In this document: positions 2 to 58,287 of the stretch, piece after piece
How the letters are laid out: every line of letters begins with the position of its first letter
How positions within the stretch are numbered: the first letter of the stretch is position 1
Source: Actinomycetota bacterium
GTDB lineage: Bacteria > Actinomycetota > Acidimicrobiia > IMCC26256 > VFJJ01
Direction: 5' to 3'
Length of the DNA stretch: 58,287 nucleotides
NCBI GenBank assembly: GCA_009886115.1
Contig: VFJJ01000057.1
Coordinates: 1-58,287, forward strand
Translations under genes and position numbers: made by a program
Notes under the pieces: model-generated
The model's database searches: none
Told to the model about the DNA's origin: nothing
Seen by the model: only the letters and a program-made list of their open reading frames with translations

Positions 2-3000
2 GCCCTGATGCCAGCGCAGCGACTGCATGCCGGCCACGTAGATCGCCTCGGCCCCGGGCTCCTCGAGGTGGCGCCCGAGCTGGTAGGCCTGCTCGGTGAG
101 CTGCTCGGCCGTGGCCAGATGGCCGGCGAGCAGCTCACGCTCGGCCGCGACATATGTGACGATCCAGCGCATGTCGGGTCGGCCGACCTCGTCGGCGATC
201 CGGGTCATCCGCCGGTAGAGCCGATCGGCCAGGACGACATCGGAGCGCAGCATGGCGCCGTAGCGACCGCGGTGGGCCGCGCCGAAGATCGCCGTCGGAT
301 CACCCGACCGCTCGGCGAGCGCGAGCATTTCCTCCGCCTCCGCAGGATCTTCAACGCCAAGTCCACCCGTCCCGGGTTGACCCAGCGACCAGACGTCGGC
401 GAGCGTTTCGAGGTCGTCGAGGCGCCGGGCGATCGCCACTGCGTGTTCACGGTCGGCGTGCGCCTGATCGGGATTGGAGAACATGCCGTCGTAGCCGAGT
501 CGGGCGAGGAGCCGAGCGCGGGCCGGGCTGTCGTGGCTGCCGACCTGGTCGAGCGCGGCCTGCAGGAGCGCCCGGGAGTCGAGATCGCCGGGATAGCCGC
601 GTTGATAGTCGGTGAGCGCCGCCTGGACGAGGGAGTCGGTGTCACCGAGGCGGGTGGCGAGCGCGGCGGCGTCGAGCCGGGTCTGGCGGAACGTGCGGTC
701 ACCGGCCTGGACCTGGGCCTGAGCCAACCGGAGGAGAAGGCCGCACGTCAGCTGCTCGTCCGGGTCGGGGGTGCGCCGGTGGAGCTGGAGGGCCTGGCGG
801 TACCAGCGCACGGCTTCGTCGGGGGCCAGCGCTTCGAGCGCACGGTCACCGGCTCGGGTGGCGTGCCCGGCGGCGAGGGTGAGATCGGCCGGGGTGACGG
901 CCGCCTCGGCCCAGTGCCGGGCCAGCTCGGTGATCCGGGCGTCGCTGAGGCCGTGCCCGAGCGCCTCGATGGTCTCGGCGATGCGGCGGTGGGTTCGAGC
1001 CCGGCGGGTGGCGGTGAGCTCGTCGTAGAGCGCGTGCTGGATGAGCGCGTGGGCGAAGGCGAACCGCTCGGCGGCGATGGTCTCGATGAGGGCGGCGGCC
1101 TCGGCCCGCTCCAGGGTGGTGATGACATCGTCGGCGTCGCGTCCGAGCACCCGGGCGAGCAGCTCGAGATCGAACTCCTGGCCGATCGCCGCGGCGGTGA
1201 CGAGCACGTCCTGGACGTCGGCGCCGAGCCGGGCCACGCGGCGCCGGACCAGACCCCGAACGGCGTCGGGCAGGACCCCGGCGCGCAGCTCGGTCCCGGT
1301 CTCGTGCAGGTGCCGGAACAGCTCGCCGGCGAAGAGCGGGTTGCCGTCGGTCTCGCGGTGAAGCGCGTCGGCCAGTGCCGGATCGGCACCGGTCAGGCGG
1401 GCGATGTCGTCTGGGCTCAGCCCGGCGAGCTTGATGTGTTGGACCGCCGGGTCGGTGGTGATGACCGGGAGCATGTCGGTGAGTGGCGTGTCGCCGTCGA
1501 GATCGGTGTGCCGGTATGTGGCCACGACCAGCAGCCGGGCCCCGGAGGCCGACGACAACAGGTGCCGGAGCAGGACGAGCGTCGCCTTGTCGGCCCAGTG
1601 GAGATCGTCGATCACGAACACCACCGGCGCCCGGGTCGATGCCTCGGTGAACGTGGCGACGGCGGCGTTCATCACGAGGTAACGCTCGGTCTCGGGGTCG
1701 GTGGCCGGCGGTTCGGGCAGCGACGATCGCCGCTCGGTGACCGAGGGGACGAGCCGGGCCAGCTCGGCGAGCCGGCGATCGCCGATCGCGTCGATGGCGG
1801 GGTCGGGAAGATGTTCGACGAGCTGGGTGAGCGCTTCGACGAACGGACGGTACGGGACCCGCAGGTCCTCGTCGCAGCGTCCGTGCAGCACCCACGCACC
1901 CGAGGCATGAGCCGTACGGGCTGCGGCTCCGGCGAGGGTCGTCTTGCCGATGCCCGACTCCCCGGCGATGAGCGCCATTCGGAGCTGACCGGCAACGGCT
2001 GCGCCGGCCAGGCCGGAGAGCACCCGGAGCTCGGCGTCGCGACCGACGAAGGTCGATCGGGTCGCTGCGGTCAGGCGCGGCGGCAGCGGCGGCGGATCGG
2101 GCTGGGCGGCGCGTGAGTCGAGGAGCTCTGTCGCCTCTCGTTCGACTCCGGCGCAGCCGTGCTCGCGGGCGAGCGGTCGTGCGGCCTCGAGGAGGGCGAC
2201 GGCGCGTTCCCGGTCGCCGGGTCCACGGCGCTCGAGGAGCATCCGGGCCCAGGCGAGCCGGGTGCGGGCGAGGAAGAACGGGGCCCGGATCTTCTCGTTG
2301 ACGGTCTGGGCCCGGGCGAAGAGCTCGTCGGCAACGTCCAGCCGCTGTTGCTGCGCGGCGAGCACACCAAGGGCATGGGCCACGGAGCCGGGCCAAAGCG
2401 CGCCGGTCGATGCGACCTGGTCGCGGAACGGGAGCATCAGGTCGAACAGGGCGGCGGCGTCGGCGGGGGAACCGACCCGGTCGCACACCTCGGCCCATAC
2501 GACCGCCCGGCCCAACCAGCCGACCTGACCCGAGATCCCTTCCCGCCGGGCGGTGCTGAGGAGCAGTCCGGCCTCCTCGAGCCGGCCGGCGGCCGAAAGG
2601 GCCAAGGCCATCACTGCGGTGCCCGATCCGTCGTAGAAGCTATCGAAGAGCTGGACCTGGGCCAGTAGATCGAGCTCGCCGGCGATCCGGCCGGCGTGCC
2701 AGGCGATGGCGGTCCGGTGCCACTGGGCGAACATCCCGGCTTGGGCCGTGGTTTCCCCAGCCGCGTGGTCGACCGCGTCGGCGCTCAACCGTTCGGCCTC
2801 GGCCGTGTCGCCGTGCAACAGGGCGAGGCTGGCCCGGTACGTCCGGTTCGTCCATTGCAACGCCGGTAGTCCGGTCTCGGCGGCGATCGCGGCCATCGCC
2901 TCGAGCCATCTCGCGGCCTCCTCGATGTCGCCCGACTCCACCGCCGCATGCACCCGCCACATGGCCGACCAGTGCACCAGTACCGGGTCGCCGAGCCGGT

Positions 3001-6000
3001 CAGCGAGCTCGACGGCCTCGGCGGTGATCTCGAGCCGTTCAACCAGCGTCTCGGGAACCCAGATCGCGAAGGCCACGAGGTTCAGGATCTGGGCCAGCAG
3101 CGCGGGAGCGTCGAGCCGGCGCGCGATGGCCAGGGCCTCGTCGGCCAGAGTCCGGCACCGCTCGAGATCGTCACCGACTCTCAGCTCGGCGGCCAGCGTG
3201 CCCAGCAGGCGCGCCCGAATCGGAGGGTCGCGCTCGTCGACCGCGGCGAGCGCAGCCTCGAGCATCTCGACCCGGTCAGTGGACAGCCCGCCGGCCGGGT
3301 CCACGAAACCTCGGCTGTTGGCCAACGTCGCCCGGGCCAACAGGCCGACGTCGCCGATGCGCCGGGCAAGGCGGCCGGCGTCGAGCAACGTGACGCGATA
3401 CACGGGATCGCCGGCGTTGCGTTGGGCCCGACCGAGACGCACGAGCAGGTCGCCGCTCGTGGCCTCCGCCGGTTCGCCGGTGCTTGGTGCGAGGAGCTCG
3501 AGGGCCTGGCCGTACCAACGGACGGCTTCATCAGGGGCCAGGGCCCTCATGGCGAGATCGCCTGCGGTGCGGGCGTAGCCGACCGCCCTGGCGGCACCGT
3601 CGGGCGTCGTCGTCGCCGCCCAGTGCCGGGCCAGCTCGGCGGCTCGCCGGCCGGTCGGATCGACCGCTTCGATCGCCTCGGCGACCCGTCGATGGAGCCG
3701 GGCCCGCCGGGTGGGGGTGAGGCCGGCGGCGATCGTGGTGGTGACCAGGCCATGGGCGAACACGAACCGTCCGGGCGCGACGCTCTGCACCAGACCGGCC
3801 GCTTCGGCAGCCTCGAGCGCGTCGAGCACCCCGTCCTCGTCCTCGTCGCCTCCGGCGGCGGCGACCGTGGCCAGATCGAACTCCCGGCCGATGACCGACG
3901 CGACCTGCAGGACGCGCTGGCCCGGCTCGCCGAGGCGGGCGACGCGCCTGCCGATCACCTCGCGGATGCTGTCGGGAAGCCCGGCCGCGTCGAGATCGGC
4001 ATGTGGGACCCAGCGGCCCGCCTCGTCGAGGTAGACGGCGCCGGTCTCGGCCAGGTGCCGCAGCAGCGCCTCGGTGAAGAACGGGTTCCCGTCGGTCTCG
4101 CGGTGGATGGCGCGCACCAGGCGCAACGCCTCGTCCTCGAGGTCCTGGCCGCTCATCGCCTCGACCAGGGCCACGACCTCGCGATCGGCCAGACCGTGCA
4201 AGGCCACCCGTTCGGTGAAGGCGTCGCGCCGCAGCGAGGCCAGCAGGTCGGTCAGCGGATGCCCCGCCGCCAGATCGCTGTCGCGGTAGGTGCCGATCAC
4301 CAGCAGCCGAGGCTGTCCGGTCTGCTCGACGGCATGGCGCAACAGCAACAGCGTCGGCTTGTCGGCCATCTGCAGATCGTCGAGCACCACGACCAGCGGG
4401 GCCCCGGTACACGCCGCGCCGAGCACGGCGCTCACGGCGCTGAACAACGACCAGCGGTCGGCGTCGGGGTCGCCGCGCACCGGCTGCGCCAGCCCGGGCA
4501 CCCGGTCGTTGACCGCGGGCACCAGCCGTGACAGGTCGACGAGACGGCGGCGGCCGATGCCCTCCAGCGTGTCGACCCGCAGGTGCTCGACGAGATGGCC
4601 GAGCGCCTCGATCCAGGGCCGGTACGGCACGCCCATGTCCTCGTCGCAGTGTCCGAACACCACGATCGCGCCCTGCCCGTGGGCCGCTCGAGCCATCTCC
4701 GCGGCCAGGCTGGTCTTGCCGATCCCCGGCTCACCCGAGATGAGCACGATCTGCGCGCTACCGGCGGCCGCCTGCTCGAACCTCGTCCCGATCCGTTCAC
4801 GCTCGGGGTCCCGACCGACGAATCCCCCCGTCGGCGTGGCCACGAGTAGACGGGGCAGCGGCACCCGACCGGCCTCCGTCGTGTCGGGCGTGGTCGTCGT
4901 GTCCGGCGTGGTCGTCGTGTCCGGCGTGGTCGTCGTGTCGGGCGTCGAGCGCACGCCCAGCCGCTGGAGCAGATAGACGCGCTCGGGGCGATCGATGTCG
5001 CGCAGCTCCTGGACACCCAGCTCGATGAGATGCCATCCGTTCGGGAGATCGTCGATGACCAGCTCGGCGGTGGCCTGGCTCACCGTTACGACCCTCGCCC
5101 GGGCCACGGCCCGCAAACGGGCGGCCCGGTTGACGGTCCTTCCGAAATAATCGCCCGCCCGTTCCTGCGCCTCGCCGGTGTGCACGGCGACCCGGACATC
5201 GAGCGGGGTCGCGGCCGGCCACGGCTCCGCGGCCACCGCGGCCTGCGCGTCGATCGCCGCGGCGACCGCGTCGGAAGCACGCTGGAACACGCTGAACGTC
5301 GAGTCCCCTTCCCCACGGGCCTTCAAGAGCACACCGCCGTGGGCTTCGACCGTGCCGCGCAGCAGGTCCTCGTGCCGGGCCACCGTCTCGGCCATGGTGG
5401 CGGGTGCCGTCTCCCACAGTCGCGTCGAGCCGACGATGTCGCTCAGCACGAACGTGACGACCCCCGTGGGTAGAACCGTGGGTCGAGGGCCCGTCTCCGC
5501 CGGAGGGTGCCAGGCCAGCTCGGGTTGCTGGCGCAGCACCCGCGCCTCCAGGTCCTGCAGCTCCGGGCTGGGGTCGATACCCAGCTCGTCGGCGAGGTGG
5601 CGGCGCAGACGTTGATAGGCCCGCAACGCGTCCGCCTGGCGACCCTGCCGGTACAACCCGGTGATCAGATGCGCCCACAGGCGTTCGCGCAGCGGTTCCT
5701 CGACGACCGCCGCTTCCGCCGCGGCGACGACCTCGGCGTGCTCACCGAGCACCAGCCGGGCTTCGAGCAGCGCTTCGACGGTCACCAACCGCAACTCGCC
5801 GAGCCGGGCCACCTCCACCAGCGCCCAACCGGCACCCGCGGCGTCGGCCAGGGCCGGTCCCCGCCACCAGAGCAACGCCCGTTGCCCGTGAGCGACCGCG
5901 CCGGCCGCGTCGCCCGCCGTCAGGCATCGCCGGGCCTGCGCGACCTCACCGTCGAACGAACCGACGTCGAGCTCACCGTCGGCGACAACCAACCGATACC

Positions 6001-6250
6001 CGCCTGGAGCATGGACCAACCGCTCGGCGCCCAGCGCCTTGCGCAGCTGCGACACGTAACCCTGCAGCGTCTGGGCGGCCGAACGCGGCGGGCTCCCGTC
6101 CCACAGATCCTCGATGAGCCGCTCGGCGGGGACCGCACGGTTGGCGTCGACCAGCAGGCGAACCAGCAGGGCCCGGGGCTTGGCCGCGCCGAACACGACC
6201 TCCTCCCCGCCGGTGCGTACCACCAGTGGCCCCAGGATCCCGAACTCCAC
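2..6250 (-). CDS. Giant multidomain regulator, partial (runs off left edge): SARP winged-HTH + BTAD + class III adenylyl cyclase + STAND/AAA ATPase + TPR-like + second STAND/AAA ATPase + TPR-like
   Basis: Manual translation from GTG 6250 (GGAGG upstream): VEFGILGPL..KPRALLVRLL..IEDLW (SARP); EPLRERLWAHLITGLYRQGRQADAL..LGIDPSPEL (BTAD); TFVLSDIVGST..KARGEGDS..VHTGE..GDYFGRTVNRAAR (cyclase); GEPGIGKT..VLDDLQMAD..TDGNPFF; then GESGIGKT..VIDDLHWAD..TDGNPLF. No stop found. The plus-strand shadow ORFs from 8 to 6355 all share one frame, consistent with a single continuous ORF. Confidence 0.9.
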   Translation of the reverse strand, partial: MEFGILGPLVVRTGGEEVVFGAAKPRALLVRLLVDANRAVPAERLIEDLWDGSPPRSAAQTLQGYVSQLRKALGAERLVHAPGGYRLVVADGELDVGSFDGEVAQARRCLTAGDAAGAVAHGQRALLWWRGPALADAAGAGWALVEVARLGELRLVTVEALLEARLVLGEHAEVVAAAEAAVVEEPLRERLWAHLITGLYRQGRQADALRAYQRLRRHLADELGIDPSPELQDLEARVLRQQPELAWHPPAETGPRPTVLPTGVVTFVLSDIVGSTRLWETAPATMAETVARHEDLLRGTVEAHGGVLLKARGEGDSTFSVFQRASDAVAAAIDAQAAVAAEPWPAATPLDVRVAVHTGEAQERAGDYFGRTVNRAARLRAVARARVVTVSQATAELVIDDLPNGWHLIELGVQELRDIDRPERVYLLQRLGVRSTPDTTTTPDTTTTPDTTTTPDTTEAGRVPLPRLLVATPTGGFVGRDPERERIGTRFEQAAAGSAQIVLISGEPGIGKTSLAAEMARAAHGQGAIVVFGHCDEDMGVPYRPWIEALGHLVEHLRVDTLEGIGRRRLVDLSRLVPAVNDRVPGLAQPVRGDPDADRWSLFSAVSAVLGAACTGAPLVVVLDDLQMADKPTLLLLRHAVEQTGQPRLLVIGTYRDSDLAAGHPLTDLLASLRRDAFTERVALHGLADREVVALVEAMSGQDLEDEALRLVRAIHRETDGNPFFTEALLRHLAETGAVYLDEAGRWVPHADLDAAGLPDSIREVIGRRVARLGEPGQRVLQVASVIGREFDLATVAAAGGDEDEDGVLDALEAAEAAGLVQSVAPGRFVFAHGLVTTTIAAGLTPTRRARLHRRVAEAIEAVDPTGRRAAELARHWAATTTPDGAARAVGYARTAGDLAMRALAPDEAVRWYGQALELLAPSTGEPAEATSGDLLVRLGRAQRNAGDPVYRVTLLDAGRLARRIGDVGLLARATLANSRGFVDPAGGLSTDRVEMLEAALAAVDERDPPIRARLLGTLAAELRVGDDLERCRTLADEALAIARRLDAPALLAQILNLVAFAIWVPETLVERLEITAEAVELADRLGDPVLVHWSAMWRVHAAVESGDIEEAARWLEAMAAIAAETGLPALQWTNRTYRASLALLHGDTAEAERLSADAVDHAAGETTAQAGMFAQWHRTAIAWHAGRIAGELDLLAQVQLFDSFYDGSGTAVMALALSAAGRLEEAGLLLSTARREGISGQVGWLGRAVVWAEVCDRVGSPADAAALFDLMLPFRDQVASTGALWPGSVAHALGVLAAQQQRLDVADELFARAQTVNEKIRAPFFLARTRLAWARMLLERRGPGDRERAVALLEAARPLAREHGCAGVEREATELLDSRAAQPDPPPLPPRLTAATRSTFVGRDAELRVLSGLAGAAVAGQLRMALIAGESGIGKTTLAGAAARTAHASGAWVLHGRCDEDLRVPYRPFVEALTQLVEHLPDPAIDAIGDRRLAELARLVPSVTERRSSLPEPPATDPETERYLVMNAAVATFTEASTRAPVVFVIDDLHWADKATLVLLRHLLSSASGARLLVVATYRHTDLDGDTPLTDMLPVITTDPAVQHIKLAGLSPDDIARLTGADPALADALHRETDGNPLFAGELFRHLHETGTELRAGVLPDAVRGLVRRRVARLGADVQDVLVTAAAIGQEFDLELLARVLGRDADDVITTLERAEAAALIETIAAERFAFAHALIQHALYDELTATRRARTHRRIAETIEALGHGLSDARITELARHWAEAAVTPADLTLAAGHATRAGDRALEALAPDEAVRWYRQALQLHRRTPDPDEQLTCGLLLRLAQAQVQAGDRTFRQTRLDAAALATRLGDTDSLVQAALTDYQRGYPGDLDSRALLQAALDQVGSHDSPARARLLARLGYDGMFSNPDQAHADREHAVAIARRLDDLETLADVWSLGQPGTGGLGVEDPAEAEEMLALAERSGDPTAIFGAAHRGRYGAMLRSDVVLADRLYRRMTRIADEVGRPDMRWIVTYVAAERELLAGHLATAEQLTEQAYQLGRHLEEPGAEAIYVAGMQSLRWHQG
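4878..4945. repeat. 18-bp tandem repeat (about 3.8 copies) encoding a (TPDTTT)n linker
   Basis: GTCGTGTC(G/C)GGCGTGGTC repeated in frame between the cyclase and first ATPase domains. Confidence 0.9.
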
Positions 6251-6359
6251 GGCCACCTCCCCGGTCGCGCGGGCAGATGGTACGTCGTTACGGGCGAACG
6301 CGAGCGATCCTCCAGCACGGCGCGAGGACCGCTCAAGCGGCGAGGCGCACGCTGACGAC

Positions 6360-7418
6360 ATGCTCGAGATCAGAACTGCCACCACACCCGAAGAGAACGA
6401 AGCCGTCTACCGGTTCCGCTACTCCATCTACGTTCAGGAGATGGGCCGCTACCAGACCATCGCCGACCATACCCGCCGCCGGCTCGCCGATCCCGAGGAC
6501 GACCGCAGCTGGATCGTCTACGCCCACGACGGTACCAACGTGGTCGGGACGATCCGCCTGACCTGGGGTGGCGACGGATTTTCCGACCGCCAGATCAGCC
6601 AGTACGGACTCGGGCCGTTCCTGGAGGAGATCCCGGCCGCCGTGATGGCCGTCGGCGAGCGCGCCATGATCTGCCCGGCATGGCGGGGTGGAGATCTCTT
6701 CGCCGAGCTGGCCAACGGTACCCAGGAACTCATCACCCGCCACGACGTCCGTGTCGTGTTCGGGGCCTGCGAGCCGCACCTGCTGTCGCTGTACTCCCGG
6801 TACCAGCGCCCCTACGCCACGAGGAACATCAACAGCCCCGAGGCCGGTTACCTCATCCCCCTGATCGCCTTCCCCCGAGGACCCGAAGCGCTCACCGGCC
6901 TCGGAGACGGACCGGGAACCCCCCGCTGCATCCACGACGTCCTCGACCGCACCGGAACCGTGAGCAACGCCATGCTGTCCGAACCAGCGGCCTACCACCA
7001 GCAGCTGCACCGGACGCTCGAGCAGCTCCCCGGCTCGCTCTTCGACGGCCTCACCGACGACGAGCTCGACCGGGCCACGGTCCACAGCAGCATCATCGAC
7101 TGCGCCCCCGGCGACCGGATACTCAAGCAGGGCGGCGTCGCCCGCAACGTCTTCGTCGTCCTCGCCGGCACCCTCGAGGTCAGCGACCACGGGCACCCCA
7201 TCGGCGTCGTCCACCCCGGTGAGGTCTTCGGCGAGACCGCCTACCTGCTCCAGCAACCCCGCAGCTACGACGTTGACGTGACCAGCGACGGCACCCGCAT
7301 CCTCAACCTCAGCGAACGCACGCTGCGCACGCTGACCGAACACGATCCCGTCGTCGCGACCAAGCTCCTCGGCAACATCTCCAAGACCCTGTGCCGGCGA
7401 CTCAGCACCGCCGGCTGA
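6360..7418 (+). CDS. GNAT N-acyltransferase (N-acyl amino acid synthase FeeM/NasP-like) fused to a C-terminal cyclic-nucleotide-binding domain
   Basis: N-terminus EIRTATT..EAVYRFRYSIYVQEMG..DPED..VGTIRL; C-terminal phosphate-binding cassette GEVFGETAYLLQQPRSYDV. ATG at 6360 preferred over the track start at 6114, which overlaps the divergent gene. Confidence 0.8.
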   Translation: MLEIRTATTPEENEAVYRFRYSIYVQEMGRYQTIADHTRRRLADPEDDRSWIVYAHDGTNVVGTIRLTWGGDGFSDRQISQYGLGPFLEEIPAAVMAVGERAMICPAWRGGDLFAELANGTQELITRHDVRVVFGACEPHLLSLYSRYQRPYATRNINSPEAGYLIPLIAFPRGPEALTGLGDGPGTPRCIHDVLDRTGTVSNAMLSEPAAYHQQLHRTLEQLPGSLFDGLTDDELDRATVHSSIIDCAPGDRILKQGGVARNVFVVLAGTLEVSDHGHPIGVVHPGEVFGETAYLLQQPRSYDVDVTSDGTRILNLSERTLRTLTEHDPVVATKLLGNISKTLCRRLSTAG

Positions 7419-7719
7419 GGCTGCAGCGCCGCGCGCCGCTCAGGAGCGAACCGCACGATGTCGACCCTGCCCAGTCCTCGGGATGGCCCGTTCGACGGCG
7501 GAACCGTGACCGGTACGAGGACAGGACACGCCGACAGCGGCGTGCGCCCCGATCACTGAGCGCGAGGCCACCACTGCTGCCCCGGTCCCGCGGTGGTCGA
7601 AACCTGTCGACATCGACGCGCTGAGCGACGACGAGCAACGTGCCGTTGCAAGGGGTACAGCGATGGAGGTCGAACGGCCCGTACGTCCCTCGCGCAAACG
7701 GCAGGCTCAGGGTCGGTCG

Positions 7720-8556
7720 CTACGCCTCGGCCGTCCAGACGACGGGAAACTGGGCTGGGTCGAGCTCGAGCGAGCCCGGCGAGAACCAGCGGCTGTAGAC
7801 GGGGTGGCGCACCGTGGGATGGTGACGGGTGCCGAGCCGGCCGAGATGGCTGACGACGCTCCGACGTTGACGGTCGGGTCGCTCATTGGGTGGGCTGCCG
7901 TGGAACGTCCAACCGTGGTGGAACGCAGCCCCGCCGGCGGGAACCTCGACGGGCGCGAGCAGGCTGTCGACGTCGATGCCGGCGGGCGCCTGGGCCCGGG
8001 CCAGCGCCAGCCAGTCGTCGGGAGCGTGGAAGTTGTCGCCGGTAGCGCTCGGAGCCCACCGGTGCGATCCTCGGACGTACCAGATGGTGCCGGTGTCGGC
8101 CGCGGTGTCGTCGAGCGCCATCCAGCAGGTGGTCATGTTCACCGGGTCGAGCCAGCCGTTGTAGGAGTTGTCGCGATGAGCGCCGATGGCCAGCCCGAGT
8201 GGCGGTTTCCACAAGACGTTGTCCTGCAGGAGGACCATCCCCGGAGCGTTCTCGAGCAGCGCGGCGAACTCGCCCTGACGGGCCGAGCGGGTCGTGGCCG
8301 CCACCACCGGGTCAGCCTTCCATGCGTTGCAGAGCTGCAGCGTCCGCTGGCCCCCGTCGGTGGCGGCGGTGTGCGCGATCGCGTTTGCTGTCGCGTCGTT
8401 CACCTCGTCCGGTGCGACCCCCGTCGCCCAGTTCCGGGCGAACAGCGGCGCGAACCGGGCAACGACGGCGGCGACCTCGTCCTCGGGCAGCAGCCGCTCG
8501 ACGACGACGAAGCCGTCACGCCGGTACTGCTCCGCCTGCTGATCCGTGGGTTGCAT
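7720..8556 (-). CDS. Phytanoyl-CoA dioxygenase family Fe(II)/2-oxoglutarate oxygenase
   Basis: YRRDGFVVVERLL; WKPP..AHRD (HxD); TCWMALDD; GSHRW; FHHGWTFHGS..N..RR; GGAGG RBS. Confidence 0.88.
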   Translation of the reverse strand: MQPTDQQAEQYRRDGFVVVERLLPEDEVAAVVARFAPLFARNWATGVAPDEVNDATANAIAHTAATDGGQRTLQLCNAWKADPVVAATTRSARQGEFAALLENAPGMVLLQDNVLWKPPLGLAIGAHRDNSYNGWLDPVNMTTCWMALDDTAADTGTIWYVRGSHRWAPSATGDNFHAPDDWLALARAQAPAGIDVDSLLAPVEVPAGGAAFHHGWTFHGSPPNERPDRQRRSVVSHLGRLGTRHHPTVRHPVYSRWFSPGSLELDPAQFPVVWTAEA

Positions 8557-8583
8557 GGCCTTTCCTCCGTGCCGAATCGAGAA

Positions 8584-8609
8584 TAGACTCCGCGAGGAAA
8601 CAGAGTTTC
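8584..8609 (+). promoter_or_regulatory. Candidate -10 (TAGACT) and inverted repeat GAAAC-AGA-GTTTC in a divergent promoter
   Basis: AT-richer 100-bp gap between divergent genes; TANNNT hexamer at 8586-8591 region; palindrome at 8597-8609. Confidence 0.35.
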
Positions 8610-8657
8610 TCCACATTCAACACGCTGCCGCTCGAGAGTTCGAGCGCGGGGGACACG

Positions 8658-11507: not shown

Positions 11508-13865
11508 GTGGACGGCGTGGACGGCGTGGAGCGCCCCGTGGATGGTGGCGGCCGGGACGATGAGCCGACTCCTCCTGTCACTGCCAACGGCACCGTGACG
11601 AGACCTCGCCTGCGCCAACCCGGCCTCGTCGTTGCGGAGTCGGGCGTCGAGCGATACCGGGTCCCGGGAGGCGGCTCGGTCGTGGTCGCGCTGGCGGGCG
11701 ACGACGTGATCGAGATCACCGACCCCGAGGGGGGTGGACGGTGTGAGCTGCGAGCCTTGGGGCGAGACGGCACCAACGGGCTCCGGGTGATCGGCGTCCA
11801 TCGCGAAGGCTCGGCGGATGGGGTGCAGCTCTTCGGCCGGTGGTCGCCAGCGGGAGCGGCGGTTCGGTTCGTCGCCAGTGACGATGTGGCGGTCACGATC
11901 GCGTCAGCGCCGCGGGTCATGGCCGTGGACGAGCACGATCCGCCATCCGAGCTTCGGGTCAGGGTCACCAGGGCGCGACCTGGCGCGAACCTCGACACGC
12001 CGGAGCTTCCACCGCCACTCGCGCTTCCTCTCCTCCTCGACCGCCGGGTCGATCGGGCGACGGCCACGGTCTACGAGGTGGCGGCTGGCCAATGGGTGCA
12101 GATCATCGACGTCGAGGGTCGCCAGTGCTCGGACCTCCTGGCGTTCAACGCCCGCCGGCTGCACGACGGGGTCGAGCGCGGCATCGATCCGACGACAACG
12201 CGCACGCTGGTCGGCTCGCTGTATCCCGGTCCGGGCCTGTATTCCAAGTACTACGACCAGGACATGCAGCCACTGCTCGAGGTGGTACGTGACACCGTCG
12301 GCCGGCACGACACCTTCGGCCTGGCGTGCACGGCCAAGTACTACGAGGACATGGGCTATCCCGGTCACGCCAACTGCTCCGAGAACTTCAACGCCTCGCT
12401 GGCGCCCTTCGGTATCGAGCCGAGGCGAGGGTGGCCGGCGGTCAACCTCTGGTACAACACGCTGATCGGGCCAGGCAACACGATCTCGCTCGACGAGCCC
12501 TGGAGCCGTCCCGGCGATTACGTGTTGCTGCGCGCTCTCACCGATCTGGTGGTCGGATCATCGGCCTGTCCCGACGACATCGACCCCACGAACGCCTGGA
12601 ATCCCACCGATGTCCACGTGCGGGTCTACGACTCCGGCCGCACCTTCACGAAGGCGATATCGCACCGCGTGACACCCGACGCCGATCCCATCCTCACCCA
12701 GGACACCGCGTTCGCCCCGTGCTGGAGCGAGCTCACCCGGCGAGTCACCGAGTACCGGGGCTTCTGGTTGCCGACGTCGTTCTCGAGTGAAGGTGCCGTC
12801 GCCGAGTACTGGGCATGTCGCGAGCGGGCGGTGGTCATCGACCTGTCGCCGCTGCGGAAGTTCGAGGTGACCGGTCCCGACGCCGAGCCCCTGCTACAGG
12901 CCGCGCTCACCCGCGATGTCCGCAAGCTCGCCACCGGCCAGGTCGTGTACTCGGCCATGTGCACCGAGACCGGCGGCATGCTCGACGACGTCACGGTGTT
13001 CCGGCTCGGCCCCGACCTGTTCAGGGTCGTCGGCGGCGACGAGCACGACGGCGTGTGGCTGCGCGAACTCGCGGAGAAGCTGGGCTACCGGGTCTGGGTG
13101 CGCCATTCGACGAGCCAGCTGCACAACCTGGCGGTCCAGGGGCCCCTGAGTCGGGCGATCGTACGGGAGATCGTCTGGACGCCACCGGGTCAGCCTTCGG
13201 TCGACGAGCTCAGGTGGTTCCGGTTCACGATCGGGCGCATCGGAGGCTTCAACGGCCCGGCGTTGCTCGTGTCACGCACCGGATACTCGGGCGAGCTGGG
13301 CTATGAGCTGTGGTGTCACCCGAATGACGCTCGTGCGGTGTGGGACGCCGTCTGGGAGGCCGGCCGTCCCCACGGCCTGTCGCCGCTGGGCCTCGATGCG
13401 CTCGACGTGCTGAGGATCGAGGCCGGCTTGGTGTTCGCCGGGTACGAGTTCGACGACCAGGTCGACCCCTACGAGGCCGGTATCGGCTTCGCCGTGGCGC
13501 TCGACAAGGGCCGTCCGCCCGACCAGCCCGACCATCCCGGCGACGACTTCGTGGGACGCGACGCGCTCCGGCGACGCCGAGCCCAACCCCAGCGGGTGCT
13601 GGTTGGGTTGGAGCTGGCCGGGAACGAGACGGCCGGCCACGGCGACCCGGTGCACCTCGGACGACCCCGGGTGGGCGTGGTCACCAGCGGGTGTCGCTCG
13701 CCGTGGCTGGGCACGAACATCGCTCTTGCTCGGGTCGCCGTCGAGGAGGCGGCGTTGGGCACCGAGCTCGAGATCGGCAAGATCGACGGCCACCAAAAGC
13801 GCATCCCCGCCCGGGTCGTGCTCTTCCCGTTCTACGACCCCGGCAAGACCAAGCCCCGCTCGTAG
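11508..13865 (+). CDS. tdm: Trimethylamine N-oxide demethylase-like (DUF1989 + GcvT aminomethyltransferase domains); start uncertain
   Basis: IIDVEGRQCSD, RHDTFGLACTAKYYEDMGYPGHANC, WYNT, EPWSRPGDY, SACPDDIDP; then GcvT motifs DLSPLRKFEVTGPDA, SRTGYSGELGYE, LRIEAG, PFYDP. Confidence 0.85.
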   Translation: MDGVDGVERPVDGGGRDDEPTPPVTANGTVTRPRLRQPGLVVAESGVERYRVPGGGSVVVALAGDDVIEITDPEGGGRCELRALGRDGTNGLRVIGVHREGSADGVQLFGRWSPAGAAVRFVASDDVAVTIASAPRVMAVDEHDPPSELRVRVTRARPGANLDTPELPPPLALPLLLDRRVDRATATVYEVAAGQWVQIIDVEGRQCSDLLAFNARRLHDGVERGIDPTTTRTLVGSLYPGPGLYSKYYDQDMQPLLEVVRDTVGRHDTFGLACTAKYYEDMGYPGHANCSENFNASLAPFGIEPRRGWPAVNLWYNTLIGPGNTISLDEPWSRPGDYVLLRALTDLVVGSSACPDDIDPTNAWNPTDVHVRVYDSGRTFTKAISHRVTPDADPILTQDTAFAPCWSELTRRVTEYRGFWLPTSFSSEGAVAEYWACRERAVVIDLSPLRKFEVTGPDAEPLLQAALTRDVRKLATGQVVYSAMCTETGGMLDDVTVFRLGPDLFRVVGGDEHDGVWLRELAEKLGYRVWVRHSTSQLHNLAVQGPLSRAIVREIVWTPPGQPSVDELRWFRFTIGRIGGFNGPALLVSRTGYSGELGYELWCHPNDARAVWDAVWEAGRPHGLSPLGLDALDVLRIEAGLVFAGYEFDDQVDPYEAGIGFAVALDKGRPPDQPDHPGDDFVGRDALRRRRAQPQRVLVGLELAGNETAGHGDPVHLGRPRVGVVTSGCRSPWLGTNIALARVAVEEAALGTELEIGKIDGHQKRIPARVVLFPFYDPGKTKPRS

Positions 13866-58257: not shown

Positions 58258-58287
58258 CGGGCCGCAGCCGGGGCGGTCGCCTCTGAC

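Follow-up and report, generated by a model that had tools for sequence, protein, structure and literature searches.

Why should a transcriptional regulator that carries its own cyclase domain lie head to head with an acyltransferase that carries a cyclic-nucleotide-binding domain, and what might pass between the two? The question is raised by one end of the window, by which is meant the whole stretch of 58,287 nucleotides that was analysed, where a SARP/class III adenylate cyclase/STAND gene (the left gene) and a GNAT-cNMP gene (the right gene) diverge from a short shared gap. The answer that we favour, held with modest rather than high confidence and drawn from sequence comparison, is that, in an uncultured actinobacterium of Acidimicrobiia type, the pair makes up a single regulatory module, in which a sensor would drive both the promoter of its neighbour and the cAMP-gated enzyme that this neighbour encodes. 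The features on which this reading is built are collected in Table 1.

Table 1. Features of the divergent gene pair, with positions in the window.
Feature	Position	Strand	Evidence
SARP / class III adenylate cyclase / 2x STAND-TPR gene, 3'-truncated, GTG start	2..6250	-	ORF, Pfam, homologue lengths
SARP DNA-binding part: OmpR-type wHTH (residues 22-76) and BTAD (94-239)	5534..6187	-	Pfam, NCBIfam partial matches
Class III cyclase catalytic domain (residues 263-398): metal Asp, Lys, GEGD, substrate Asp, Asn, Arg	5057..5464	-	Pfam, alignment
Tandem repeat of an 18-bp unit, 3.8 copies; codes for PDTTTT linker from cyclase to STAND module 1	4877..4945	-	
STAND module 1: AAA_16 P-loop NTPase (GEPGIGKT, VVVLDDLQ) and helical TPR-like sensor region	2117..4840	-	
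STAND module 2: internal duplicate of module 1, cut off by contig end	2..2116	-	Pfam, self-alignment
Divergent promoter region, 109 bp	6251..6359	.	
GGAGG Shine-Dalgarno of left gene	6260-6256	-	
-10-like hexamer TACCAT of left gene, putative -10 role; TACsNT in 7/7 orthologous gaps	6277..6282	-	
Four heptamers in 11-bp register; candidate SARP-binding array over -35 region of right gene	6300..6339	+	
Heptamers GCGAGCG, TCCAGCA, GCGAGGA and TCAAGCG, respectively	6300, 6311, 6322, 6333	+	
-10-like hexamer CACGCT, 8 nt past last heptamer and 6 nt before ATG	6348..6353	+	
GNAT-cNMP gene, 352 aa; AlphaFold model pLDDT 90.4, pTM 0.87	6360..7418	+	ORF, Pfam, homologues
FeeM/Acetyltransf_5-type N-acyltransferase domain, residues 15-148 (fold 1-178)	6402..6803	+	Pfam, NCBIfam, fold comparison
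cNMP-binding domain, residues 249-328; phosphate-binding cassette FGETAYLLQQPRS	7104..7343	+	Pfam, alignment
Glu292 and Arg301 in phosphate-binding cassette FGETAYLLQQPRS	7233-7235, 7260-7262	+	

The left gene starts at a GTG that stands 5 nt from its Shine-Dalgarno sequence and that corresponds to the starting residue of its homologues, and it is still open at its 3' end. Since the first base of the window is also that of the contig, the C-terminus of the protein is missing; 2083 amino acids are present as against 2240-2283 in full-length double-STAND homologues, so that some 160-200 residues have been lost. Within the part that is present, Pfam places a Trans_reg_C domain (28.5 bits, cut-off 26.2), a BTAD domain (143 bits, E 1e-41), a Guanylate_cyc domain (35.9 bits, cut-off 21.9) and two AAA_16 domains (195 bits) with the Walker A sequences GEPGIGKT and GESGIGKT, together with a weak TPR_12 match (E 0.009; 16.6 bits, well below the cut-off of 30.1), and the NCBIfam AfsR and BagI/FevR models match in part. 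Aligned to each other, the STAND modules show 43% identity over 717 columns. Judged by these domains, the left protein ranks among the MalT/AfsR-like STAND sensors, with two output domains, a SARP and a class III adenylate cyclase, on one chain, and it belongs to a SARP-cyclase family of at least 1913 proteins at E <= 0.001 among 8000 candidates scored.

The residues on which cyclase chemistry depends are all in place. The motifs quoted in the first-pass annotation (SDIVGST, GEGDS, the Lys in LLKARG, the Asp in GDYFG and the Asn/Arg pair in TVNRAAR) were found as described, and by alignment they fall on the positions that, in solved cyclases, serve the metal, the substrate and the transition state. 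Across 121 sequences, made up of the window protein and its 120 best SARP-cyclase homologues, the first metal Asp and the acidic residue of the GEGD/GD motif are invariant (121/121 each), and the substrate Lys is kept in 116, the substrate Asp in 119, the Asn in 117 and the Arg in 120, such that the catalytic set is both intact in the window and under purifying selection. The full class III residue set of two metal Asp, Lys/Asp and Asn/Arg is thereby present, with the caveat that in KARGEGD two extra residues separate the Lys from the second metal Asp, which makes the second metal ligand ambiguous, either Glu or Asp. The cyclase looks active and specific for ATP, the substrate to which the Lys/Asp pair points rather than to pyrimidines.

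Two groups of known regulators invite comparison with this protein. Like the large SARPs and SARP-LALs, for instance AfsR, PimR, SanG and FilR, it has an N-terminal wHTH and BTAD, with a P-loop NTPase and (weakly matched) TPR region C-terminal to them. It differs from them, however, in that its STAND/TPR module is duplicated, in that its predicted target here is a single enzyme gene and not a biosynthetic gene cluster, and in that a complete cyclase domain with all of the catalytic residues lies between the SARP and the NTPase. SARP-LALs of the PimR type lack a guanylate-cyclase signature according to a review of SARPs (PMC10972967), and the full Guanylate_cyc domain with its catalytic residues rules out an assignment of the left protein to that type. 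The second group is that of the mycobacterial CHD+LuxR proteins Rv0386, Rv1358 and Rv2488c, which similarly combine a class III cyclase, a STAND-type ATPase/TPR region and DNA binding on one chain, a combination that makes an Rv0386-type protein a dual-output sensor (PMC3466318). In that type the DNA-binding domain is a C-terminal LuxR HTH, whereas in the left protein it is an N-terminal SARP; the CHD+LuxR subfamily is moreover restricted to Mycobacterium, and no adjacent cNMP-gated effector is described for it in the same source (PMC3466318).

If the SARP of the left protein has a target, the most immediate candidate is the gap beside it, which has the 109-bp length and the divergent setting that the first-pass annotation gave it. 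In the same review, SARPs recognise heptameric direct repeats in classical 11-bp units that overlap the -35 box, and regulators of the AfsR, PimR, SanG and FilR type bind such repeats near it (PMC10972967); the four heptamers of the gap are a candidate array of this kind. In all seven orthologous gaps the best heptamer matches lie at -60 and -27 from the ATG, with 6-7 of 7 bases, and those at -49 and -38 reach 4-6 and 3-4 bases, respectively, over a background mean of about 2. The order that follows the heptamers, namely 8 nt, CAyGsT, 6 nt and ATG, is the same in 7/7 gaps, the -10-like box reading CACGCT in six loci and CATGGT in one at an identical offset, and the length of the gap is conserved across the seven loci as well. 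The short distance between CACGCT and the ATG implies a leaderless mRNA. Within the 5.4-Mb assembly the three-repeat heptamer pattern occurs once, at this gap, and the proximal heptamer plus -10 motif alone is found at chance frequency (7 found, 5-14 expected). The weight of this proximal motif comes from its conserved position, in sequences that are related and hence non-independent. The gap has the layout expected of a SARP-activated, leaderless promoter that would drive the acyltransferase gene.

The protein encoded on the other side of the gap, whose start Met is shared by its homologues, fuses a predicted N-acyltransferase domain to a cyclic-nucleotide-binding domain (Pfam cNMP_binding, E 5e-13). 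The FGE...PRS pocket, reported as intact before, proves to be so: Glu292 and Arg301 are invariant in 18/18 aligned homologues and match up with the FGE...R(S/T)A cassette found in PKA and PKG. There is a precedent for such a combination in NasP, a cAMP-activated N-acyl amino acid synthase that Clardy and Brady are said to have obtained in 2007 from an uncultured beta-proteobacterium. NasP is metagenome-derived and activated by cAMP (PMC4897644) and acylates phenylalanine (PMC5643525). The right protein resembles it by description in that a NAS/FeeM-type N-acyltransferase is placed under what may be a direct cAMP switch, the feature for which NasP is noted (PMC4897644), and in its fusion, seen with Pfam, of a NAS domain to a cyclic-nucleotide-binding domain. 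This fusion is widespread, and clusters that combine FeeM and cNMP_binding are common in the ESM Atlas in Pseudomonadota and Actinomycetota. Unlike the pair in the window, NasP has no reported dedicated cyclase or SARP partner in the available material.

These components suggest how the module could work. A ligand or partner would be read by the two STAND/TPR modules, leading to nucleotide-dependent oligomerisation of the left protein. The oligomer would line up SARP domains on the four 11-bp-phased heptamers, thereby switching on the leaderless promoter of the right gene, and at the same time would bring cyclase domains together into active dimers that generate cAMP. In the right protein, the C-terminal cNMP domain would then bind the cAMP and turn on the FeeM/OlsB-type N-acyltransferase domain. 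With acyl-ACP or acyl-CoA as donor, this domain may attach a fatty acyl group to an amino acid or a similar amine, and so generate an N-acyl amino acid or aminolipid. The outcome would be a coherent feed-forward (AND) gate of two genes, in which a single enzyme becomes both more abundant and more active in response to one input.

Such a scheme depends upon the two genes belonging together, and the first-pass annotation had named as the first of its refuters a pair that is never co-located in other genomes. The pair is co-located elsewhere. Among 108 other GNAT-cNMP loci (79 genomic and 29 metagenomic), a cyclase-bearing ORF lies within 250 bp of the GNAT-cNMP gene in 29 and is absent in 49, with 30 loci too short to judge, giving 29 of 78 informative loci; the locus L063 is a thirtieth adjacent case that the 250-bp rule missed. 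A cyclase would be expected as either neighbour by chance in about 1% of cases (roughly 0.3-1.6%), a base rate taken from the approximately 28 cyclase genes of the 5.4-Mb genome studied here and from five related genomes, which have 41, 32, 32, 5 and 17 PF00211 matches. Among the 79 genomic loci the commonest neighbour cluster is cyclase/STAND (28), followed by a generic SDR (12). In a quick IQ-TREE phylogeny the clade of the window (SH-aLRT 96) has 14 rows, of which 8 have a divergent SARP-cyclase gene and 4 are too short; in the other two, L012 and L013, the SARP-cyclase-STAND gene is one SDR gene away, such that 8 of the 10 informative members have it adjoining. In other clades the partner is a cyclase-STAND, a STAND-TPR-cyclase or a small stand-alone cyclase, and several orientations occur. 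The two-gene module is real, and the recurrence of the pairing in related uncultured bacteria indicates that the two genes are probably one small control circuit.

What the recurrence leaves to be weighed is the nature of the link, which might be transcriptional only, with the cyclase feeding a shared cAMP pool and the cNMP domain of the acyltransferase reporting global cAMP. The genome favours such an arrangement in that its roughly 28 cyclase genes are accompanied by 13 cNMP-binding domains, as a result of which the cAMP is unlikely to be private to the gene pair, and the 49 informative GNAT-cNMP loci with no adjacent cyclase include a whole clade of 18. Furthermore, 150 genomes of the same order supplied 21 SARP-cyclase loci that are more distant (two of them, L124 and L125, from unpublished genomes), and none of the 21 has a GNAT-cNMP gene within 1.5 kb upstream, one (L121) having another cNMP-domain protein there; these paralogues adjoin unrelated genes, including MDMPI_N/DinB (4/21), P450 (2/21) and hydrolases. 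It follows that the cyclase is a generic component of the regulator family, and its presence does not have to be explained by service to the adjoining enzyme. For these reasons the description of the circuit as self-contained in the first-pass annotation is not supported, although what it had to say on co-location, the catalytic set, the cNMP pocket and the type of GNAT is. Against a purely transcriptional link, cyclases that have no SARP at all, whether cyclase-STAND, STAND-TPR-cyclase or stand-alone, adjoin GNAT-cNMP genes in separate clades and phyla, and in the genome G004 three of the five PF00211 matches flank its GNAT-cNMP gene. A link through transcription alone does not account for these pairings, and we regard that alternative as unlikely, if still of some weight.

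A further alternative retains the circuit and changes the product, in that the right protein would transfer acetyl or acyl groups to proteins or small molecules under the control of cAMP, rather than be a lipid or N-acyl amino acid synthase. Mycobacterial Pat/KATmt joins a cNMP-binding domain to a GNAT and so puts acyl transfer directly under the control of cAMP, and cAMP-gated protein acetylation by Pat is an established precedent. The fold comparison, which the first-pass annotation had proposed alongside one of profile models, gives this alternative some encouragement. Foldseek finds the AHL synthase BjaI as the best match of the N-terminal domain (E 1.7e-9, TMq 0.67), with FeeM at rank 9, and in VIA-align FeeM (2g0b; Z 16.5, 166 residues aligned, rmsd 2.9) is tied with the small GNAT YjcF (Z 16.9) and close to 1xeb (Z 16.3), ahead of the other AHL synthases TofI (15.4), RpaI (15.3) and LasI (14.9); because generic GNATs score alike, a FeeM-like fold does not discriminate. 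The FeeM Pfam score (PF21926) is also marginal, since the whole protein reaches 27.8 bits and the isolated domain 29.6 with a cut-off of 27, and the genes next to the pair include neither an acyl carrier protein nor a fatty-acid gene, nor any conserved third gene. The family as a whole (812 proteins at E <= 0.001) nevertheless argues for the FeeM side. The right protein itself matches Acetyltransf_5, as do 19 of 20 members at E <= 0.01, with 16 matching FeeM and just 3 Acetyltransf_1; the NCBIfam OlsB model matches 19 members (best E 1.7e-13) and the exosortase-associated NAS model 15, all far under the equivalog cut-offs. The longest fold alignments, of 162-166 residues, are those to FeeM and the AHL synthases, as against 139-142 for small GNATs. 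Pat has the opposite domain order and a different GNAT subfamily, and its NCBIfam model covers the cNMP region only, with 21.4 bits where the cut-off is 460, so that the right protein is not a Pat. A Pat-like activity is in our estimation distinctly improbable, and the GNAT is best described as an acyltransferase of the FeeM/OlsB/LuxI-fold type.

The right protein shares a common fold with FeeM, OlsB and LuxI-type AHL synthases, and weak sequence matches with FeeM and OlsB, yet these enzymes carry no cNMP domain. OlsB is rejected because the equivalog cut-off is missed widely (29.4 against 350 bits), and a LuxI-type AHL synthase because the LuxI Pfam family matches 0/20 GNAT-cNMP members at E <= 0.01, although the resemblance in fold is strong.

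A cyclase beside a cNMP-domain effector, together with STAND NTPase sensors, also has the logic of a Pycsar-like anti-phage pair, whereby the STAND sensor-cyclase would detect infection and the cyclic nucleotide would activate the effector. The PADLOC PycTIR and Pycsar effector models do match the right protein (E 3e-10 to 3e-7), but only through its cNMP domain, and the left protein matches no PADLOC Pycsar cyclase model, so that the pair was not classed as Pycsar. The Lys/Asp specificity residues suit ATP and not pyrimidines, the left protein has a SARP DNA-binding domain and the gap a SARP-type promoter, the neighbouring genes are metabolic rather than defensive, and a GNAT is not a known Pycsar effector, all of which leaves a role in defence very improbable. 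That two common actinobacterial gene types from large families, in genomes rich in cyclases, simply fell side by side is already contradicted by the comparative data, with 29-30 of 78 informative loci adjacent where about 1% is expected, the near-constant divergent arrangement within the clade and the conserved gap and promoter layout of seven loci, and hardly merits belief.

The first-pass annotation knew of no account of a SARP-cyclase-STAND/GNAT-cNMP pairing, and none was found in the literature searched. The pair is a new variant beside known kinds, the large SARP or cyclase-STAND regulators on one side and the cAMP-activated NasP on the other. More tentatively, and with rather less assurance than we attach to the module itself, a single sensing event in one polypeptide may give rise to both a promoter and a cAMP output that act on the neighbouring enzyme. 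If this is true, an acylated amino acid signal or lipid would be made under the control of a minimal two-gene coherent feed-forward AND gate. The SARP-cyclase-STAND proteins of uncultured Actinomycetota, at least 1913 in number, would then make up a large class of dual-output sensors that has gone undescribed, each member with a dedicated neighbouring target, and the GNAT-cNMP proteins, as a family, would recur as private receivers of cyclic nucleotide that is made locally.

The functional tie between the left gene (SARP-cyclase-STAND) and the right gene (GNAT-cNMP) stands on far firmer ground than does any one of the biochemical steps that may be proposed for them. Both lie at the start of a contig in a draft genome (5.4 Mb, 224 contigs, 95.6% complete), of which the window covers contig C80 from base 1 to base 58,287, with a G+C content of about 72% and with uncultured Acidimicrobiia as the nearest relatives of its genes. 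The left reading frame is still open at base 2, so the C-terminus is lost at the contig end, and the length of full-length two-module relatives (2240-2283 aa) indicates that some 160-200 residues are absent. Its GTG start has a GGAGG 5 nt upstream and corresponds to the start residue in homologues. The 109-bp divergent gap reported in the first-pass annotation (6251-6359) separates the two start codons.

Features of the divergent gene pair and of the intervening gap
Feature	Position	Strand	Description or basis
Left gene	GTG 6250 to base 2, reading frame still open	-	translation
Right gene	ATG 6360 to stop ending 7418	+	352 aa
Trans_reg_C	residues 22-76, left protein	-	Pfam
BTAD	residues 94-239, left protein	-	Pfam
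Guanylate_cyc	residues 263-398, left protein	-	Pfam
AAA_16 P-loop NTPase, two copies, each followed by a long helical region	left protein	-	Pfam
First metal Asp	SDIVGST, left protein cyclase
Substrate Lys	LLKARG, left protein cyclase
Substrate Asp	GDYFG, left protein cyclase
Asn and Arg	TVNRAAR, left protein cyclase
Heptamers	6300, 6311, 6322, 6333	+	candidate SARP sites
Hexamer CACGCT	6348-6353	+	putative -10
Hexamer TACsNT, then GGAGG	6282-6277	-	conserved; fits promoter and ribosome-binding site of left gene

How widely is the pair maintained? Loci with relatives of the right protein, 79 genomic and 29 metagenomic (108 together), were searched using the left protein and, in addition, a cyclase HMM derived from the matches, adjacency being defined as a cyclase-bearing stop-to-stop ORF no more than 250 bp from the GNAT-cNMP gene. 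By this rule 29 loci are adjacent, 49 offer 1.5 kb or more of sequence to either side but no adjacent cyclase, and 30 are too short to tell; one further adjacent case, L063, was missed because the ORFs overlap. At L012 and L013 the SARP-cyclase-STAND gene is one SDR gene away, at L059 a frameshifted cyclase lies 593 bp upstream of the GNAT-cNMP gene and at L061 the adjoining STAND gene runs past the contig end. Since the sample contains near-copies (L050/L104-106, L054/L110, L089/L090) and the loci share kinship, the adjacency counts exceed the number of separate events. Within a tree of 95 proteins (quick IQ-TREE, SH-aLRT support only) the window clade has a support of 96 and 14 rows, of which 8 have a divergent SARP-cyclase gene, 4 are too short, with the first 100 residues of a SARP gene visible upstream in one of these (L090), and the last two are L012 and L013. 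The neighbourhood comparison suggested in the first-pass annotation thus finds that the pair recurs.

Outside the window clade the partner takes other forms, including cyclase-STAND proteins in Acidimicrobiia and Solirubrobacterales, at times on both sides of the GNAT-cNMP gene, STAND-TPR-cyclase proteins in Acidimicrobiia and in MAGs labelled Myxococcota, and a stand-alone cyclase of 264 aa in a MAG labelled Gammaproteobacteria and in three metagenome contigs with the identical protein. A further clade, of 18 GNAT-cNMP proteins, shows no adjacent cyclase. When neighbouring ORFs were clustered by all-against-all BLAST after a GC3 filter, a cyclase/STAND cluster occurred within 4 kb in 28 of the 79 genomic loci, the next most frequent being a generic SDR (12 of 79). 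Equal longest-contig sizes hint that ten of the best SARP-cyclase matches and ten of the best GNAT-cNMP matches reside on common contigs. In two MAGs labelled Solirubrobacterales (L053 and L080, 6640-14450) cyclase-STAND genes flank the GNAT-cNMP gene on both sides and on the same strand, and the L080 locus accounts for three of only five matches to PF00211, the Pfam cyclase domain, in its genome. At L091 the divergent SARP-cyclase gene upstream is joined by a second cyclase gene, of the cyclase-AAA_16 type (5247-5903, +), just 3' of the GNAT-cNMP gene.

Beyond the two genes the surroundings change. The downstream neighbour encodes PhyH in the window, MFS in L009, EamA in L010, RibD_C in L011 and SDR in L012/13, with no conserved third gene among them, and no acyl carrier protein or exporter gene accompanies the pair. 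The PhyH dioxygenase gene (7720-8616) is convergent with the right gene, while in the two closest genomic relatives the convergent gene encodes a transporter (MFS, L009:11105-12685, -; EamA, L010:10973-12352, -), which may or may not be relevant. Further along the window, G+C falls from about 0.72 to 0.64-0.66 between 8500 and 11000, over FAD oxidoreductase and acyl-CoA dehydrogenase-like genes, and a single ORF at 11508-13865 (+) fuses DUF1989 to an aminomethyltransferase (GCV_T and GCV_T_C).

Seen from the side of the regulator, the SARP-cyclase architecture is very common. A set of 1913 such proteins was recovered at E ≤ 0.001 among 8000 candidates scored, and in a sample of 150 genomes from the same order the best matches are 38-54% identical to the N-terminal 470 residues of the left protein. 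None of the 21 distant loci that span SARP and cyclase (two of them, L124 and L125, from unpublished genomes) has a GNAT-cNMP gene in the 1.5 kb upstream, so the pairing belongs to one orthologous regulator subfamily, and the cyclase domain is a general trait of the SARP-cyclase family and not an adaptation to the GNAT-cNMP partner. Four of these 21 genes (L122, L134, L136, L137) have a divergent upstream gene of the MDMPI_N/DinB family, which may be another recurrent regulator-target pair, and one (L121) has a divergent gene (896-1555, -) for a 220-aa protein that is mainly a cNMP-binding domain; the remaining upstream neighbours are P450s (2), hydrolases and assorted genes. Elsewhere in the window's own genome, contig C165 carries nine cyclase-STAND genes in tandem on one strand (1478-25727). 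A second GNAT copy at the end of the same contig (26127-26530, -), which runs into a Crp-like HTH fragment, is degraded: its frame is broken by a stop and a frameshift, and it was left out of the evidence.

A transcriptional connection between the genes is suggested by the gap itself. TCGAGCG is a consensus for SARP heptamers, which follow an 8-bp spacing rule, and in actinobacteria, where the -10 consensus is TANNNT, leaderless mRNAs are frequent. Seven orthologous gaps (window, L009, L010, L088, L090, L091, L098) were aligned on the right-gene ATG, and in each the two best matches to TCGAGCG fall at -60 and -27 with 6-7 of 7 bases, the heptamers at -49 and -38 matching at 4-6 and 3-4 of 7 against a background of about 2 of 7 in the same regions. 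After the last heptamer come 8 nt, the hexamer CACGCT (CATGGT in L009), 6 nt and the ATG. In the window no Shine-Dalgarno sequence precedes that ATG. The reading of the hexamer as a -10 element is based on its conservation and not on likeness to a consensus, and a generic promoter scan of 6100-7800 found no sigma-70 consensus site. An automated direct-repeat search of the gap at set thresholds returned nothing, as the heptamers are too degenerate. Genome-wide, the proximal heptamer plus -10 occurs at chance level (7 found, 5-14 expected) and is uninformative by itself; the three-repeat version of the heptamer pattern has a single occurrence in the whole assembly, at the gap. On the opposite strand the distal heptamer lies over the -35 region of the left gene, making its autoregulation possible. 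A review (PMC10972967) describes SARP sites as heptameric direct repeats, classically in 11-bp units over the -35 box, a layout that the candidate array in the gap matches.

The left protein combines these SARP and cyclase domains with two NTPase-sensor modules that are 43% identical over 717 aligned columns, a similarity that points to internal duplication; one of the two helical regions gives a weak Pfam match to TPR_12. Forms with one module (about 1350-1400 aa) and three modules (about 3140-3220 aa) were also found. Between the cyclase and the first STAND module runs a PDTTTT linker, whose coding DNA is an 18-bp tandem repeat (4877-4945; 3.8 copies, 96% matches). The metal- and substrate-binding residues of class III cyclases, along with their Asn/Arg pair, have established roles, and the first-pass annotation held these motifs to be intact, which is borne out by alignment of the domain to solved class III cyclases with the key residues at the expected positions. 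In the segment KARGEGD the stretch from the Lys to the second metal Asp is longer by two residues, so that the second metal ligand could be either the Glu or the Asp. Among the window protein and its best 120 SARP-cyclase homologues the catalytic positions are kept in 116-121 of 121; this conservation argues for an active enzyme, and the Lys/Asp pair for ATP as its likely substrate. A Glu/Lys combination replaces that pair in 5 of 34 cyclase domains adjoining GNAT-cNMP genes (L054, L077, L083, L107, L110), in an alignment whose Asn column appears shifted in some rows, and hints at another nucleotide specificity in that clade.

The right protein belongs to a GNAT-cNMP fusion family of 812 proteins at E ≤ 0.001, the best 120 of which all have the cNMP domain, and ESM Atlas clusters place FeeM-type fusions in Pseudomonadota, Actinomycetota and Bacteroidota. 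Its C-terminal domain is cyclic-nucleotide-binding (Pfam E 5e-13), with a cassette, FGETAYLLQQPRS, that aligns with its counterpart in PKA and PKG, FGE...R(S/T)A; Glu292 and Arg301 show no variation across the homologues aligned (18 of 18). The N-domain is a GNAT that narrowly passes the Pfam threshold for FeeM (27.8 bits, cut-off 27) and also matches Acetyltransf_5. Across 20 family members there are matches to Acetyltransf_5 (19), FeeM (16), NCBIfam OlsB (19) and exosortase-associated NAS (15), the last two all far under their equivalog cut-offs, and none to the LuxI family. AlphaFold models are confident both for the whole protein (pLDDT 90.4, pTM 0.87) and for the N-domain (pLDDT 88.3), which was folded separately because a profile search of solved structures with the whole protein had only cNMP-domain entries among the 60 matches listed and so said nothing of the GNAT. 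The top Foldseek hit is BjaI, a CoA-dependent AHL synthase (E 1.7e-9, TMq 0.67), with FeeM in ninth place, and VIA-align gives Z scores of 16.9 for YjcF (139 aligned), 16.5 for FeeM (166 aligned), 15.4 for TofI, 15.3 for RpaI and 14.9 for LasI. The N-domain is therefore placed in the FeeM/OlsB/LuxI-fold branch of acyl-transferring GNATs without being an equivalog of any characterised enzyme, and the modelled fold alone cannot tell it from small acetyltransferases. Of the comparison envisaged in the first-pass annotation, the fold branch stands and neither OlsB equivalence nor LuxI membership does.

What might such a pair do? Input-driven oligomerisation is established for STAND proteins of the MalT and AfsR types, and class III cyclases need to dimerise. 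Some input, sensed by the STAND/TPR modules, would drive oligomerisation of the left protein, arraying its SARP domains on the phased heptamers to turn on the right gene and at the same time pairing its cyclase domains into dimers that make cAMP. The cAMP would open the cNMP-gated acyltransferase, as in NasP, whose activation by cAMP is described in PMC4897644. The product is likely an N-acyl amino acid or an aminolipid, the weakest link of the mechanism, and for the chain as a whole, from sensing through transcription and cAMP to acyl product, the balance tips slightly in favour.

The description of the circuit as self-contained did not survive, as the genome carries some 28 genes for cyclases besides 13 cNMP domains. 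A link through transcription alone, with cAMP drawn from a shared pool, is unlikely, for cyclases that lack a SARP domain also adjoin the GNAT-cNMP family. That the right protein is a Pat-like protein or small-molecule acyltransferase is decidedly improbable, as both its sequence affinities and its reversed domain order speak against this. A Pycsar-like defence pair is very hard to sustain, since PADLOC matches the cNMP domain only, the specificity residues of the cyclase indicate ATP and the gene context is metabolic. Adjacency by chance is scarcely credible, with an expectation of roughly 0.3-1.6% for a cyclase as either neighbour, a figure based on the roughly 28 cyclase genes in the 5.4 Mb of the window's genome and on PF00211 matches in five related genomes (41, 32, 32, 5 and 17).

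Each part of the proposed sensing-to-acylation chain has a known relative. For the right protein these are NasP, which is cAMP-activated, and Pat as a cNMP-GNAT fusion. For the left protein they are the mycobacterial cyclase-ATPase-TPR-LuxR proteins (PMC3466318) and the large SARPs and SARP-LALs, the latter differing, according to the review PMC10972967, by having no cyclase signature. What may be new is a SARP that contains a complete cyclase and is conserved as the partner of a FeeM-like acyltransferase under cNMP gating, for neither of which was a description found in the full-text literature covered, a body that leaves most subscription journals outside; the first-pass annotation had likewise known of none for the pairing.

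It is an old question how cAMP can act specifically in bacteria with dozens of adenylate cyclases, all of which make the same diffusible molecule. In this locus two things bind a cyclase to a single candidate receiver, the conserved adjacency of the genes and a promoter that is probably under the control of the cyclase protein's own DNA-binding domain, so that two genes and 109 bp of DNA are enough to put the question to the test. It is this two-gene handle on cAMP specificity in many-cyclase bacteria that makes the finding of moderate to high interest. The locus also extends the SARP regulators by a class that bears a cyclase and sets cAMP-activated NasP, an orphan precedent, in a genomic context, and the widespread GNAT-cNMP enzyme family, unstudied save for NasP, may be a source of N-acyl amino acids or aminolipids in Actinomycetota of soil and sediment.
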